A stretch of DNA of 52,915 nucleotides from Candidatus Nealsonbacteria bacterium (GCA_003560665.1 PWKK01000028.1:1-52915); one strand, 5' to 3'. Counted from the first letter of the stretch, positions 5,414 to 11,033 are shown. Numbers and translations are program-made. The notes: generated by a model not told the origin, from the sequence alone.

Positions 5414-5776
5414 CTACATTATCTCTCTTATTTTCTTGACAATTTCTGCAGGAGTAAAGTGAGCTTTGATAAGGAAATCAACCGCACCAAGATTTAATCC
5501 TCTTTCTACCTCGCTCTTTTGACCTAAGTTAGAAAGAATAATCACCGGTATCTCGGAAACATCAGGGTCATTTTTTATTCTCTCTAAAACCTCGAATCCG
5601 TCGATTCCCGGCAAAATCAAGTCAAGAAGAATCAAATCTGGCTTTTCGGCCTTTGTTTTTTCTTCTCCTTTCTCACCATCAACAGCCTGAATCACCTCAT
5701 ATCCTTCTTTGTCCAGTTTGCGAGAAATCATTTCCCGGAGAAACTTGTCGTCTTCAATAACTAATATTTTAGACAT
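5414..5776 (-). CDS. single-domain response regulator (receiver only)
   Basis: KILVIEDD, DLILLDLILP phosphoacceptor, LSN, conserved Lys in FLIKAHF; no output domain; start moved to ATG 5776. Confidence 0.93.
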   Translation of the reverse strand: MSKILVIEDDKFLREMISRKLDKEGYEVIQAVDGEKGEEKTKAEKPDLILLDLILPGIDGFEVLERIKNDPDVSEIPVIILSNLGQKSEVERGLNLGAVDFLIKAHFTPAEIVKKIREIM

Positions 5777-5804
5777 ATTCGACGCTTTTTTAAATATTTT
5801 AATA

Positions 5805-6191
5805 CTATTCTTCTTTTTTCTCCCCTTCTCCGATTTGTACAATGACCTTATCTATCACTTCCTGAGGATCAAACTCTGTTTTTACAAGCCAGTCCTTTGC
5901 TCCCAGTTTTTGAGCTCGATCAATTTCAACAGGTTGCCCGGAGTTAGAAACAACAACAACAGGTATTCCACGAAGATTATCATCTTTCTGCATTTCTTCT
6001 AACAACTCGAAACCCCCCATTTTCGGCATAATAATGTCCAAAAGAATAAGATCCGGCCTGTTTGCTCTTATCTTTGAAAGTCCCTCTTCTCCATCCTTTG
6101 CTGTTTCAACTTGATACCCTTCTTCTGTAAGTTTTTTCTCTAAAAGACTGCAGAGTACTTCCTCGTCTTCAATGATAATAATCTTCTTCAT
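5805..6191 (-). CDS. single-domain response regulator (receiver only)
   Basis: KKIIIIEDE, DLILLDIIMP, VSNS, WLVKTEF; no output domain. Confidence 0.93.
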   Translation of the reverse strand: MKKIIIIEDEEVLCSLLEKKLTEEGYQVETAKDGEEGLSKIRANRPDLILLDIIMPKMGGFELLEEMQKDDNLRGIPVVVVSNSGQPVEIDRAQKLGAKDWLVKTEFDPQEVIDKVIVQIGEGEKKEE

Positions 6192-6261
6192 ATTTGTAGG
6201 ATTTGTAAAATTTAAATTTTGACCTTTTTTGTATTCTATCTGTATTAAAAGATAATGTCAA

Positions 6262-8016
6262 CTAGAACGCTTCGAAAAAGCTGTCTATCTCTTCTTTGTT
6301 TGCGGGAAGAGTAAAATAAAACGTACTTCCTTCTCCTATTTTAGAGGTAAATCCGACTTTTCCACCATGAGCTTCAACAACGTTTTTAGCGATAAAAAGA
6401 CCCAGCCCCGACCCTTCCGTATCCATTCGTTGTACATTTGCGGCTCGAAAAAACTTGTTGAACATTCTTTTTTGTTGATCATCCGGTATTCCTACACCTG
6501 TATCCGTTGTTGAAACTTTAACCTTTCCGTTAATGCTCTCAACTTTAAAAATTATCTTTCCTTCTTTGGTGTACTTCATGGCATTGTCTAAGAAGTTTTG
6601 CACTACCATGGTTATCTTTTCTCTATCTACCTTAACTTTAGGCAGTTTTTCAGCCGGCTTTTGGACTTCAAACTCGATTTGTTTTTTTCTGATATGGTCT
6701 TTGTAAGCTTCTATAACAGGGTCTACTATTTCCATAAGATCCGTCTCTTCCGGTTCATAAATGTATCTTCCCTCTTCAATACGTGTTACATTTAAAAGAT
6801 CATTTACCAGATTTACCATGCGATCGTTTGCTTCGTACGCCTTCCGAATAAAGCTCATAATTTCTTCGGGAATCTCAGCACTGTCTTCTTCTTCTAAAAT
6901 AGTTTGCAATGTCCATTTTATACCGGAAAGAGGTGTTCGAAGCTGGTGAGCTGCAACAGAAACAAACTCACTCTTTATCTTCTCAATACCCTTTTCTCTG
7001 GTAATGTCATGGATGTTAACAAGTGTTCCCACATCTTTAACGGGAATAGTGGTAACTTCCAAAAAAGCACCTTTTTCCGTAGCAATCTCTTCACGGAAAA
7101 TCTCTTTTAATTCTTCACCGACAAGATCAACAAACGGGTCAAGGGCGGGAAAGGATTTGAGTTCTTTCACCGATTTTCCAATTACATCTTTTAACTTTAT
7201 TCCGAACATCTTTTCCGTTTCGGGGTTTATTAAGGAAACTTTTTTGTTTAAATCAAAGAGAATCAATCCATCCACAAAGTTTTTGATAACCGCCAGTGTT
7301 TTTTCTTTTTCTTTTTCTGCGTCCTTAGAGGCCTTGTCCGTATCTTCTGCTAGATTTAACAGAGCTGTTTGTGTCTGCCTCATTTCTTCTGCTTTTTTTT
7401 CGAGCTCTTCTGCTTTTTTCTCAATCTCCCGTGTTCTTTCTTTTACCTTCTCTTCTAACTTTTCATTTATTTCTTCCAGTTCTTGAGTGCGAGCCATAAT
7501 CCTTACCTCTAAAACTTTTTCTGACTCCTCTAGTTTTTCTTTTGCTTTTTGTAGTTCTTTCGTTCTTTCTTTTATCTTTCTTTCCAGTTCTTCTTCAAAT
7601 CTTTTTGTTTCGGTAATATCACTGATAGTAAGAAAATATCCAGAAAAATTTCCTTCATCATCTTTTCTAGAAAGAGCAGAAATTCTAACCGGTATCTCTT
7701 TTTTCCCCTTTGTGACAAGAGTTACCTCTTCCTCTACTACGGAATCTTTATTAGCAACCCGTGTACTGAACATTTCTATCTTTCCTTTGTCCTTGTCCTT
7801 AAACAAAAAGTCAATGTTCCTTCCGATAGTCTCCATTTTTTCGTACCCAGAAACATCCCGAAACGCATGATTGCAGTCAAGGATATAATCCAGCGGATTT
7901 ACCATGCAAAAAGCCAAAGGAAGAAATGATGTAAAGTCTTCTATATAGCGCCGGAGATCTTCAAGCTCTCCGCTCTCGTTTTCGATTACTTCTTCTTTTG
8001 TTTCTTCTTCCATCAT
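6262..8016 (-). CDS. cytoplasmic PAS-coiled coil-PAS sensor histidine kinase (HisKA + HATPase_c)
   Basis: H box FVSVAAHQLRTPL, N box NFLDNAMKYT, G1 DTGVGIP, F box, G2 EGSGLGL; two PAS-like segments; no transmembrane helix visible. Confidence 0.94.
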   Translation of the reverse strand: MMEEETKEEVIENESGELEDLRRYIEDFTSFLPLAFCMVNPLDYILDCNHAFRDVSGYEKMETIGRNIDFLFKDKDKGKIEMFSTRVANKDSVVEEEVTLVTKGKKEIPVRISALSRKDDEGNFSGYFLTISDITETKRFEEELERKIKERTKELQKAKEKLEESEKVLEVRIMARTQELEEINEKLEEKVKERTREIEKKAEELEKKAEEMRQTQTALLNLAEDTDKASKDAEKEKEKTLAVIKNFVDGLILFDLNKKVSLINPETEKMFGIKLKDVIGKSVKELKSFPALDPFVDLVGEELKEIFREEIATEKGAFLEVTTIPVKDVGTLVNIHDITREKGIEKIKSEFVSVAAHQLRTPLSGIKWTLQTILEEEDSAEIPEEIMSFIRKAYEANDRMVNLVNDLLNVTRIEEGRYIYEPEETDLMEIVDPVIEAYKDHIRKKQIEFEVQKPAEKLPKVKVDREKITMVVQNFLDNAMKYTKEGKIIFKVESINGKVKVSTTDTGVGIPDDQQKRMFNKFFRAANVQRMDTEGSGLGLFIAKNVVEAHGGKVGFTSKIGEGSTFYFTLPANKEEIDSFFEAF

Positions 8017-8017
8017 T

Positions 8018-8578
8018 TTAACCCTCCTTATTCCTCTTTAGCTTCTTTTTTAGTTTGTTTATTTCTTCTTTGAGTTCTATCATTTTAAGCTCTCTTCCTA
8101 TGGTTAGCTTGTTTATTTTCTCCAACTCTTCCACTTTTTCTCTTAATTTTTCATTACTTTCTTTAACCTTTTTTTCCTTTTCTTCTACCTCTGTAAGATC
8201 AAAAAATGAAAGAAAAGCTCCGTTTACTCCCTCTCCTTTAATTTTTCGGCTTTTGGCAAAAACTGTAACCGGCAAAACTCTTTCATCCTTTTTTTTTATC
8301 TTCGTTTTTTCTCTTTCAACCAGTCCCTCTTTTATTGTTTTTTCTAATATCTCTTTGGCATTTTTTTCTTCCATAAAAAGGGTCAGATTCTCTCCCACAA
8401 CATCATACTCGTCATATCCCGTTGCTTTGACAAATGCAGGGTTAACCTCTAAAACCATTCCCTTAGGATTAACAAAACAAAGAGGAAGGGGAGTAAAAGA
8501 AAAGAGATCTTGAATATATGTTTCAAGTAAAGATATGTCCTCTGTAAGTGTTTTTATTTTCCCGTCATCATTTACCAT
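8018..8578 (-). CDS. stand-alone PAS domain protein with C-terminal coiled coil
   Basis: PAS motif VNPKGMVLEVNPAFVKATGY..VVGENL; C-terminal GRELKMIELKEEINKLKK; resembles the adjacent kinase N-terminus. Confidence 0.85.
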   Translation of the reverse strand: MVNDDGKIKTLTEDISLLETYIQDLFSFTPLPLCFVNPKGMVLEVNPAFVKATGYDEYDVVGENLTLFMEEKNAKEILEKTIKEGLVEREKTKIKKKDERVLPVTVFAKSRKIKGEGVNGAFLSFFDLTEVEEKEKKVKESNEKLREKVEELEKINKLTIGRELKMIELKEEINKLKKKLKRNKEG

Positions 8579-9174
8579 TTGATTGTGAATTCGTGATAAT
8601 CGTCTCCCCGATGATTACACTTCACCTCTTCGCACTTTGTTTCTTTTCCAACTCCCATCTTGATAACAGAAGAGAAGTATCCCTTCAAATAATCACACAA
8701 TATCGGATGGAGATTAATATCGTAAAGACGGGCTGTCATAAATCTTTCTTCAGTGCTCATTTCTACAGGTTCCAGTTTTCCGACAGTGTAGTGCTTTTCC
8801 CACATCTCTCCCGCTTTCTCCATGATTTTTTCCGGTGAAAGGAAGTATCTCATAAAAAACTTTATCATTAGAGAGAACTTAGGAGCGTTGGATCCCATTT
8901 GCATCAAACTTTCTTTTTCAAGATTTAGTGCACGAGATATTGCAACAAGAGAAAGAACCCTCATTCCAATCGGATAAAAACTCATATTGTCCGCTTCTTG
9001 GTTATAATCAAAGGGGCACCTCATTTCCTTGAGCTCTTCTTCTACTTTTTTCAATCCTTCTTCTCCTTTGCTATCGACTATAAAGCGCCGATCGGTTTTA
9101 AAAACCACACCCCTTACTTCTCCCTCAGCGTTTAATATTTTATTGATTTCTTCGTCTGTTATTTGATAGGCCAT
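8572..9174 (-). CDS. V4R/H-NOX-fold putative ligand-binding protein, paralog 4
   Basis: GEVRGVVFKTD, FYP, HPILCDYLKGYF, EEVKCNHRGDDYHEFTIKW; motif-level similarity to V4R, H-NOX and TIGR02265/DUF2378-type proteins. Confidence 0.75.
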   Translation of the reverse strand: MAYQITDEEINKILNAEGEVRGVVFKTDRRFIVDSKGEEGLKKVEEELKEMRCPFDYNQEADNMSFYPIGMRVLSLVAISRALNLEKESLMQMGSNAPKFSLMIKFFMRYFLSPEKIMEKAGEMWEKHYTVGKLEPVEMSTEERFMTARLYDINLHPILCDYLKGYFSSVIKMGVGKETKCEEVKCNHRGDDYHEFTIKW

Positions 9175-9194: not shown

Positions 9195-9812
9195 TTAATT
9201 ATTACTCTCCGTATTCCAAGTTAAATAAAACTCGTGATAGTCGTCGTTATTAAAAAGACACTTTGTTTCTTTCGCTTCAACTTTTTCTGCTACTACCATA
9301 GAAACAATGGAAGAAAAATAGCCAAGCAAATAACGGCAAAACACTGGATGAAGATTCACTTCATGAAGACGGAAAACAGCCCTCCCTTCATCTTCGCTTA
9401 CTTCTACCGCTTCTATTCTTCCTTTTGTATAGTGCTTTGCCCACATCTCTGTTACCTTTGCAAGTGTTTGCTGTGAAGACATAAAATACTTTGTAAAAAA
9501 CTTAATCAGAAAAGATGCTCTTGGAGCATTTCTTCCCATTTCTTTTATCTCTTCTTCTCCGTAATTAAAGGCCTTACTTATTGCAAGAAGGGAAAATACT
9601 CTTAAATTCAGAGGATAAAAATCCATTCTATCAATGCTTTTATAGTCTATAAAAACACCCATCTTTTCAAGTTCTTCTTCCACCTTTTTTAACCCTTCTT
9701 CTCCCTTTTCTCTTAAAATATAATTTTCGTCTGTCTTGAAAACAACTCCTCTAACCTCTCCTTCGACTTTTTTTAACCTCTCTATTTCTTCTTGATTTAT
9801 GCTATAGGTCAT
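9195..9812 (-). CDS. V4R/H-NOX-fold putative ligand-binding protein, paralog 3
   Basis: GEVRGVVFKTD, FYP, HPVFCRYLLGYF, ETKCLFNNDDYHEFYLTW; start moved to ATG 9812 by alignment with paralogs. Confidence 0.75.
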   Translation of the reverse strand: MTYSINQEEIERLKKVEGEVRGVVFKTDENYILREKGEEGLKKVEEELEKMGVFIDYKSIDRMDFYPLNLRVFSLLAISKAFNYGEEEIKEMGRNAPRASFLIKFFTKYFMSSQQTLAKVTEMWAKHYTKGRIEAVEVSEDEGRAVFRLHEVNLHPVFCRYLLGYFSSIVSMVVAEKVEAKETKCLFNNDDYHEFYLTWNTESNN

Positions 9813-9816
9813 ATTT

Positions 9817-10422
9817 TTAGTTTTCCCAATTTGCCTTAAACTCATGAAACTCTCCCCCGTAAAAAGGACATTTTGTTTCTTTTACAGTTACTTTTTTTGA
9901 AATGGTCATTGAAATAATGCCCTCAAGGTATCCTTCCATATAGGCGCAGTAAACGGGGTGAAAATCAACTTCTTTAATAATAAAAATCGCACACCCCTCT
10001 TCTTCGTTTATCTTCTTCGCTTCCGCTGTTCCTGTTGTCGAGTGCTTTTCCCAAACTTCTCCCACCTTGTTTAAAGTTTGCTTTGTGCTTAAAAAATGTT
10101 TTGTAAAAAACTTAACTAAAAAAGAAGACTTCGGTGCAGCCCTTCCCATCTTTTTTACCCCCTCTCTGTTTAAATCAAATACCTTTGAAATCGCAATAAC
10201 CGAAAGAAGTCTTGTTCCAAAAGGATAAAACTCAGTTGCATGAACGTCTTTATATTTTAAGGGATAGCCCATTTCCTCCAATTCTTGTTCAACTTCTTTT
10301 AGCTTTTCTTCTCCCCCGTTTTGAAGAACAAAAAGACCATCTGTCTTAAAGACCGTTCCCCGGATATCTCCCTTCATATTAATTATTTTTTCCGCTTCTT
10401 GTTTGGATATATTGTAATTCAC
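9817..10422 (-). CDS. V4R/H-NOX-fold putative ligand-binding protein, paralog 2
   Basis: GDIRGTVFKTD, FYP, HPVYCAYMEGYL, ETKCPFYGGEFHEFKANW. Confidence 0.75.
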   Translation of the reverse strand: MNYNISKQEAEKIINMKGDIRGTVFKTDGLFVLQNGGEEKLKEVEQELEEMGYPLKYKDVHATEFYPFGTRLLSVIAISKVFDLNREGVKKMGRAAPKSSFLVKFFTKHFLSTKQTLNKVGEVWEKHSTTGTAEAKKINEEEGCAIFIIKEVDFHPVYCAYMEGYLEGIISMTISKKVTVKETKCPFYGGEFHEFKANWEN

Positions 10423-10430
10423 AATTTATT

Positions 10431-11033
10431 TTACCACTTTAATAAAAATTCATGAAAAAAACTTTCACCTTTAAAATAGCACTTTACTTCTTCACAAGAT
10501 ACTTTTTCCAAACCTCCGTTTTCCGCAATCGCCGCAAAATAACCGCAAAGATAGTCGCAAAAAACAGGATGGAAGTTAAGATTGTACAGGCGTAAAACAG
10601 CCCTTTTTGCATCACTGTCCGTCTCTACCACCTCCAACCTTCCGACTGTGTGATCCTTTCTCCACGCTTTAGAAGCTTTTTTAAATATTTTTTCTACTGT
10701 AAGAAAACGTTTTGTAAAAAGATTTACTAAGAAAGAATTTTTCGGTGCAGCTCTTCCCATCTCTTCGACCTCTTTCTTGCTCATACTAAAAACTCTGCTT
10801 ATCGCAATAAGAGACAGTGCTCTTCTTGCCCACGGATAATATTTTTCACTCTTTATCTCTTCATAGAGAAAAGGGCACGCCAACATATCAAGCTCTCTTT
10901 CTATCTGGTCTATCTTTTCTCTTCCTCCTTTTTCCAAAACAAAGAGCTCATCATCCTTAAGAACCCTTCCCTTTACTTCCCCAGGAGAACTCATCATTGC
11001 ATTTATGGTCTCTTTGTTGACTTCGTAATGCAT
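10431..11033 (-). CDS. V4R/H-NOX-fold putative ligand-binding protein, paralog 1
   Basis: GEVKGRVLKDD, YYP, HPVFCDYLCGYF, EEVKCYFKGESFFHEFLLKW. Confidence 0.75.
   Translation of the reverse strand: MHYEVNKETINAMMSSPGEVKGRVLKDDELFVLEKGGREKIDQIERELDMLACPFLYEEIKSEKYYPWARRALSLIAISRVFSMSKKEVEEMGRAAPKNSFLVNLFTKRFLTVEKIFKKASKAWRKDHTVGRLEVVETDSDAKRAVLRLYNLNFHPVFCDYLCGYFAAIAENGGLEKVSCEEVKCYFKGESFFHEFLLKW

Follow-up and report, generated by a model that had tools for sequence, protein, structure and literature searches.

How does a sensor protein without an output domain take part in signaling when its gene directly precedes that of a histidine kinase? Two-component sensing is usually described as the work of one polypeptide that both senses and phosphorylates. 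In a 52,915-nt stretch of DNA from Candidatus Nealsonbacteria bacterium (GCA_003560665.1 PWKK01000028.1:1-52915), hereafter called the window, the gene for a stand-alone PAS protein of 186 amino acids (aa), P0001 (8018..8578, minus strand), is followed by that for P0002 (6262..8016, minus strand), a cytoplasmic histidine kinase of 584 aa assigned by Pfam. P0001 was delineated from its open reading frame (ORF), Pfam matches, homologs, and an AlphaFold2 (AF2) model. Judging from sequence, it appears reasonably likely that P0001 serves a split two-component sensor as an input module without a kinase of its own, with a C-terminal tail that docks on a socket in the neighboring kinase.

The two genes are closely joined. 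The P0001 ATG overlaps the TAA of the preceding gene, V4R-like paralog 4, by 7 nt (8572-8578), and the P0001 TAA (8018-8020) lies 1 nt from the P0002 ATG (8016), immediately 5' of which stands an AAGGAGG Shine-Dalgarno site. The start of P0001 is backed by orthologs that open with MV[NE]. Both junctions had been described in an earlier sequence-only reading of the window and were confirmed when the sequence was read again.

P0001 is a single PAS domain with a long C-terminal helix

Three parts make up P0001, all on the minus strand: an N-terminal cap helix (residues 4-28; 8495..8569), recognized in the AF2 model, the family alignment A1, and hhalign comparisons; a PAS core (residues 33-127; 8198..8482), supported by Pfam, AF2, and Foldseek; and a single continuous C-terminal helix of 57 residues (129-185; 8024..8194), which AF2 modeled with a predicted local distance difference test score (pLDDT) of ~92 for the block. 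The AF2 model, for which 29 homologs were used, had a mean pLDDT of 91.6 and showed the PAS domain as five strands plus helices. The cap helix is common to the N terminus of the kinase, with L18, Y21, F28, and P30 conserved. P0001 probably forms a dimer through this cap and the long C-terminal helix.

Pfam matched P0001 to PAS_9 (PF13426; 47.1 bits, cut-off 27), PAS (PF00989; 35.8 bits, cut-off 22.6), and PAS_8. As the sequence-only reading had stated, the small protein has no catalytic domain; PAS is the sole Pfam or NCBIfam domain, and neither database returned a catalytic or DNA-binding output domain. At an E value of ≤0.01, Pfam gave neither HisKA nor HATPase_c, and P0001 does not classify as a kinase or a pseudokinase of the RocA type. 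Membership in HNOBA (PF07701) was rejected, as there was no Pfam match at the same threshold. Foldseek gave a probability of 1.00 to many PAS structures, and its matches included PAS, FixL, and short LOV proteins. The best structural matches were generic PAS domains, with the short LOV proteins among the closest in overall architecture. A role as a LOV photoreceptor was rejected: the flavin-adduct Cys of the GxNCRFLQ-type motif is missing, the equivalent stretch being VVGENLTLFMEE. The NCBIfam model YtvA_fam scored 18 bits against a cut-off of 250.

A conserved tail ends P0001 and many other sensors without an output domain

The most conserved part of the family, above the PAS domain, is the C-terminal tail with the consensus ELEKxxKLTxGRELKMxELK. 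Its core in P0001, ELEKINKLTIGRELKMIELKEEINKL, covers residues 151-176 (8051..8128, minus strand) and was defined from alignments A1 and A2. In an alignment of 29 sequences with 31-89% whole-sequence identity to P0001, residues G161, R162, E163, M166, and K170 were invariant, and the invariant columns clustered in the last 35 residues. The GRE[LVM][KR]M motif of P0001 begins at residue 161 of 186, and the protein scores 65.7 bits against the tail profile A2. Its 169 near-length homologs, most of them 171-227 aa long and reaching down to 30% identity, all terminate in the tail.

The sequence-only reading had called for a search with the tail, which proved informative: the tail is a C-terminal mark of detached sensors beside kinases. 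A peptide-pattern scan of one genome per GTDB species yielded at least 598 matches from many bacterial and archaeal phyla, and 80 loci chosen by the tail pattern were fetched. In these loci 12-40 aa separate the motif from the end of its ORF, where the 12 belongs to a gene truncated at a contig end; a single ORF departs from this range, at 101 aa. Almost every residue across ~10 successive tail positions was invariant across phyla. The proteins bearing it were 138-1152 aa long and carried one to eight PAS domains, dCache_1, HAMP, multiple transmembrane (TM) segments, REC-PAS, or SBP-PAS, but never an output domain.

The tail profile (53 positions), searched against 1.84 billion representative proteins, matched 14,863 clusters at an E value of ≤1e-3, the low-scoring share of which may include generic coiled coils, and 1,508 clusters at ≤1e-10. 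Among the 150 proteins listed, 149 were new to the profile search, and in 142 of these the match ended ≤30 aa from the C terminus. When the 47-aa tail alone was used to look for longer proteins, seven matches were obtained, with E values that are weak against the 5.8 billion sequences searched. Sequence searches of the PDB with the tail and socket profiles returned no matching chain, and a full-text literature search on the motif strings gave no relevant mention of either motif. We likewise found no published name for kinase-less sensors that bear the tail. With its terminal tail, its lack of an output domain, and an adjoining socket kinase, P0001 fits this class.

Several features of individual tail proteins were observed alongside. 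The only fetched tail that is not terminal belongs to a HAMP-tail protein (L050:6255-7298) with a Cys-rich extension of ~85 aa past the tail, containing ten Cys with spacings that include CxxxxxC, CxxC, and CxxxxxxC. In loci from outside the candidate phyla radiation (CPR; L023-L080), the last PAS domain and the tail were near-identical across Acidobacteria, Deltaproteobacteria, Chloroflexi, Planctomycetes, and Methanomassiliicoccales, with tree end branches mostly of 0.01-0.25. Frequent horizontal transfer or an extreme constraint on the entire terminal PAS-tail module would account for this. In P0138 (945 aa), a socket-like LAMINLLED lies internally and the terminal tail is a variant, LGRELDMIEMKKRIN, a combination that hints at daisy-chained sensors.

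A socket motif in the kinase accompanies the tail

The order of parts in P0002 is PAS1, S-helix coiled coil, socket, PAS2 (residues 242-343), HisKA, and HATPase_c (PAS-PAS-HisKA-HATPase_c in Pfam); NCBIfam pointed to a WalK/PnpS-like core at scores under the cut-offs. PAS1 (residues 20-136; 7609..7959), a paralog of the stand-alone PAS domain, is followed by the coiled coil (7387..7608), whose sequence has three ERT/ART signatures (KERTKEL, ARTQEL, and KERTREI), with ERT as defined previously (PMC1592074). The socket (residues 210-245; 7282..7389) was located by a six-frame motif scan and alignment A4. Its core is TALLNLAED (residues 217-225), and the copy TQTALLNLAEDTD (residues 215-227) stands directly ahead of PAS2. 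All three elements are on the minus strand.

A socket-bearing kinase with the pattern xALLNxLED was present in 77 of 79 tail loci, and a contig end accounts for one of the two loci without it. Outside the CPR, the socket-bearing ORF adjoined the tail gene in 52/52 loci, its start nearly always coinciding with the tail-gene stop or lying a few bases from it, most frequently with an ATGA overlap. The same loci encode 51 other kinases, none of which has the socket. Where complete, the socket-bearing ORFs encode kinases without a sensor domain, in which one to six tandem repeats of ~22 aa ([TQ]Q[RK]A[IVM]LN[IL]LEDFxxEKxRLE) precede HisKA or HisKA_2. CPR kinases of the P0002 architecture have one socket each (n = 17), 16 of them strict and one, from L050, with the variant ALTNMLED; A, L, N, and D of the socket were invariant in the 23 CPR kinases of alignment A4. 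Socket repeats were also seen ahead of HisKA_2/HWE-type kinases (L031, L053, L055, L062, L068, L070, L074, and L079), and the motif is thus portable across kinase families.

A six-frame scan of the 679-kb genome to which the window belongs revealed two tails, one socket (in P0002), and four kinases. The second tail protein (C21:5890-7209, plus strand; L081:2891-4210; 439 aa) consists of dCache_1, a TM segment, HAMP, an ERT coiled coil, and the tail GREMKMVEIK; its gene adjoins serS and has no kinase nearby. Among 201 Patescibacteria genomes, sampled evenly across the phylum, the tail was found in 25 and the socket in 16, of which 15 had both and 1 had the socket only (Fisher P = 3e-15, a value that is overstated because relatedness was uncorrected). 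Socket and tail were ≤~3 kb apart in 14 of the 15 genomes having both. A natural fusion, P0240 (568 aa), carries the tail, a linker of ~20 aa, socket repeats, and HisKA on one polypeptide, the C-terminal half of which looks frameshifted. Its predicted fold showed a tail helix, a low-confidence linker, and a socket helix.

Gene neighborhood and co-occurrence thus support the functional link between P0001 and the kinase that the sequence-only reading had suspected. The basis of the link needs revising: the conserved partner feature is the tail/socket pair and not PAS-PAS similarity alone, for the tail is also found on dCache, HAMP, and multi-TM proteins, which have no PAS domain in common with the kinase.

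The PAS domain of P0001 is a paralog of kinase PAS1

The proposed paralogy with the kinase's own N-terminal PAS domain is real and specific, as judged by BLASTP, hhalign, and a PAS tree. In BLASTP, P0001 residues 18-181 matched P0002 residues 21-192 over 173 columns, with 35% identity and an E value of 2e-22. The alignment, put forward earlier as gap-free, is gapless over its first ~60 residues and has gaps farther on, and D-[LI]-T-E closes the PAS core ahead of a helix in both proteins. When the stand-alone family (A1) was compared with the kinase N termini (A6), hhalign gave a probability of 100% and an E value of 1.7e-56 over 158 columns. This profile alignment spans the N-cap, PAS, and coiled coil, and ends one residue before the tail and the socket. 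The two motifs therefore occupy equivalent positions on homologous scaffolds, and the PAS1 arm of the kinase and the free protein can be regarded as one module with different ends. Such a shared module would be compatible with in-register parallel pairing. Strict positional identity of tail and socket was rejected, as the distance from DxT to the motif here is 34 residues for the tail versus 85 for the socket.

The tree comprised 105 PAS domains and 122 columns, and its fine detail is poorly resolved. CPR stand-alone PAS domains and kinase PAS1 domains formed one clade (SH-aLRT support, 87), apart from the kinase PAS2 domains (SH-aLRT support, 100) and from the tail-adjacent PAS domains of other phyla. 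Within the clade the two kinds were intermixed, with P0001 in a set supported at 98 that contains 12 PAS1 and 4 stand-alone domains. In the favored reading, the PAS domain of P0001 arose by duplication of kinase PAS1 or by exchange with it.

V4R-like proteins occur together with one PAS subtype

Upstream of P0001 are four genes for V4R-like proteins, which matched each other with phmmer E values of 1e-50 to 1e-68. The best V4R (PF02830) score, obtained by paralog 4, was 30.0 bits against a cut-off of 31, for a match confined to the last 40 aa of the protein. Of the 34 family members, 15 matched V4R at an E value of ≤0.01, below the family threshold. The V4R-like proteins had no sequence relative in the PDB, and their neighbors in the Atlas were unnamed CPR clusters, followed by DUF2378 and V4R at 0.93. 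Paralog 4 also weakly matched the C-terminal half of the archaeal redox regulator MsvR (NCBIfam, 23 bits, far under the cut-off). The family recurs in the same genome at C1:51839-53052 and in loci L001-L025, and a seventh V4R-like gene (C21:11525-12118) lies 4.3 kb downstream of the dCache-HAMP-tail gene.

The PAS subtype associated with these proteins has the N-cap LExYIxDLFxFxPLPLCFVxP and exists either free or fused to a kinase. V4R-like proteins occurred in 4 of the 201 genomes, and copies of the PAS subtype scoring >130 bits occurred in the same 4, the next best genome scoring 68 bits. The subtype was located in the free tail protein only in one of them (G021), in the kinase only in two (G026 and G089), and in both in the genome of the window. 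A V4R-like gene also adjoined in 27/27 CPR loci, which had been fetched through this PAS subtype.

The sequence-only reading saw P0001 as a possible adaptor that bridges the V4R proteins to the kinase. An obligatory adaptor is contradicted by orthologous cassettes that lack the PAS-tail gene: it was absent from ~12 of the 27 CPR cassettes, which have a TM, HAMP, or dCache tail protein instead and keep kinase PAS1. G026, a genome of the same taxonomic order as that of the window, has the kinase, a V4R-like protein, and a tail protein of the TM-HAMP type, but no PAS-tail protein. Conversely, G053, also from this taxonomic order, combines a PAS-tail protein of another PAS subtype with a GAF-socket-PAS-kinase and has no V4R-like gene. 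With roughly half of the cassettes lacking the PAS-tail gene, P0001 is better described as an optional input. What stands of the bridge is the co-occurrence of PAS subtype and V4R-like proteins, which was without exception in our samples. A relay from V4R-like protein to PAS domain remains plausible, its main support being the four independent lineages.

Proposed mechanism and alternative explanations

The following steps could connect P0001 to the kinase. V4R-like proteins, or a ligand, would act on the PAS module, with the V4R-like proteins most likely placed upstream and in contact with this PAS subtype. The signal would travel down the long helix of P0001 to its last ~35 residues, the tail, which we infer to dock on the xALLNxLED socket helix of the neighboring kinase; in P0002 this helix stands after the PAS1 coiled coil and ahead of PAS2-DHp. 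Docking, whatever its geometry, would bias kinase/phosphatase activity in trans, in one direction or the other and alongside the fused PAS1 arm, with output to the two receiver-only proteins of the cassette. The dCache-HAMP-tail membrane sensor (contig C21) would use the same single P0002 socket. A wider scheme is possible, and we put it forward tentatively: a three-tier non-covalent sensor, in which V4R-like proteins act on the PAS subtype and this acts on the kinase in cis (PAS1) or in trans (PAS-tail), with tail and socket as a general portable connector for unrelated detached sensors in bacteria and archaea, serving both HisKA and HisKA_2 kinases.

Several observations weigh against docking of the tail on the socket. 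The ratio of tails to sockets is not simple; non-CPR loci have one tail protein to two to six socket repeats, and CPR loci have one to three tail proteins to one socket. Conserved operons alone could explain the co-occurrence of the two motifs. Ten tail-positive genomes had no socket at an E value of ≤1e-5, at least one of which (G008) has the variant AAQNVFED. The choice of the 80 loci by tail pattern makes the conservation of the tail core partly a matter of construction, with the flanks and the profile search unaffected. The fold of P0240, predicted from an unpaired alignment with a predicted TM-score of 0.35, yielded secondary structure but no contacts and is uninformative on docking.

A rather unlikely alternative, the first option of the sequence-only reading, is that P0001 acts as a pseudo-subunit or decoy, which heterodimerizes with the PAS1 arm of the kinase through PAS, N-cap, and coiled coil, displaces a protomer partner, and thereby inhibits or re-tunes the kinase; the tail would then be no more than the end of a coiled coil. 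The homology of these three parts (in the coiled coil, of its start) in the two proteins, the single CPR clade with repeated exchange between their PAS domains, and translational coupling across the 1-nt gap, which favors co-assembly, all agree with it. Yet the same tail is found on dCache, HAMP, and multi-TM proteins that are incapable of PAS heterodimerization, non-CPR kinases that follow tail proteins have socket repeats only and no PAS domain at all, and in G021 the frame of the socket kinase has no match to the PAS subtype, although a free PAS-tail protein is present. It should be noted that heterodimerization and tail-socket docking are compatible and do not exclude each other.

Quite unlikely, in our estimation, is an independent small sensor whose tail homo-oligomerizes as a coiled coil or binds another partner, for instance a receiver-only or V4R-like protein, so that adjacency to the kinase reflects operon history. 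PAS proteins that consist of one domain and its flanking helices, with no known effector, do exist, as the structural matches to short LOV proteins illustrate, and two receiver-only genes come next in the fetched CPR cassettes wherever the sequence reaches far enough. Against this, the invariance of ~10 tail positions across phyla exceeds the needs of a two-stranded coiled coil, the socket appears on HisKA and HisKA_2 kinases only when a tail gene adjoins, and tail and socket are naturally fused in P0240. The resemblance of P0001 to the kinase N terminus and the abutting genes could also suggest a fragment without function, the N-terminal part of a kinase gene that a stop codon or frameshift has divided. 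This explanation is extremely improbable and was rejected: it is already contradicted by the conservation of the family, with its own start and stop and its 169 tail-ended homologs, and the downstream kinase has a complete N terminus and Shine-Dalgarno site of its own.

Organization of the remaining cassette

The cassette begins after a 5'-3' exonuclease gene and comprises eight co-directional genes on the minus strand. The V4R-like paralogs were assigned from Pfam and comparison with each other for paralog 1 (10431..11033; 200 aa) and paralog 2 (9817..10422; 201 aa), from phmmer between paralogs for paralog 3 (9195..9845; 216 aa as listed), and from the sub-threshold Pfam V4R match for paralog 4 (8572..9174; 200 aa). 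Beyond P0001 and P0002 lie two receiver-only response regulators. The first (5805..6191; 128 aa) matched Pfam Response_reg with an E value of 6e-26, and the second (5414..5842) matched it over residues 26-139. The ORF of the latter opens at a TTG, but translation more probably starts from the ATG at 5776 (MSKILVIEDD). A promoter and terminator scan of the cassette was at chance level (18 sites versus 14.5 ± 3.4 expected). A sigma-70-like site at 6233-6261 (minus strand; TTGACA-17-TAGAAT, 11/12 match), between the kinase stop and the first receiver gene, may be an internal promoter, though the whole scan did not exceed chance.

Comparison with known systems

The short LOV proteins PpSB1-LOV, PF5-LOV, and W619_1-LOV resemble P0001 in being stand-alone PAS folds with an N-cap, a C-terminal helix, and no effector, and they were among the best Foldseek matches by target-normalized TM-score (0.70-0.79; 7r5n, 7a6p, and 5luv). 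Unlike them, P0001 lacks the flavin-binding Cys motif, having VVGENLTLFM in its place, and its C-terminal helix is about twice as long, with a conserved tail and a genomically linked partner motif. No comparable partner motif for short LOV proteins was found in the literature searched. Caulobacter MopJ is described as a single-domain PAS protein that acts on cell-cycle kinases, a regulator in a histidine-kinase network (PMC4432633). P0001 is likewise a single-domain PAS protein; no sign of the tail in MopJ or of the socket in its kinases was seen, though no search aimed at either was made.

The S-helix described by Anantharaman, Balaji, and Aravind in 2006 is a parallel coiled-coil linker that follows PAS or HAMP, has an ERT signature in its central heptad, and almost always lies between two signaling domains of a single polypeptide (PMC1592074). 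The kinase and most tail proteins are similar in bearing ERT-type heptads (KERTKEL) just before the socket or tail. P0001 differs on both counts: it has K-E-S-N-E-K-L where relatives have E-R-T-K-E-L, and its clade shows E-S-N for E-R-T; its helix 129-185 is the last element of the protein, with the next domain carried by a separate polypeptide.

Perception and kinase are on separate polypeptides in H-NOX with HnoK and in chemoreceptor-CheW-CheA arrays. RocA has been discussed as an accessory protein of CovS (PMC7028121). As in these three systems, sensing and kinase are split here over side-by-side genes, and several inputs can reach one kinase. Whereas the known systems use globular contacts or a dedicated adaptor, the apparent connector of P0001 is a short linear helical motif, which seems portable between unrelated kinds of sensor domain and to kinases of two families.

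If this reading is true, a portable helix-helix connector would explain thousands of output-less "orphan" PAS, Cache, and HAMP proteins, as well as multi-input integration in tiny genomes such as the present one, with 679 kb and four kinases. It would also offer a natural plug for engineering sensor-kinase pairs. In addition, the strict pairing of V4R-like proteins with one PAS subtype provides a concrete way, open to testing, into a protein family of unknown function.

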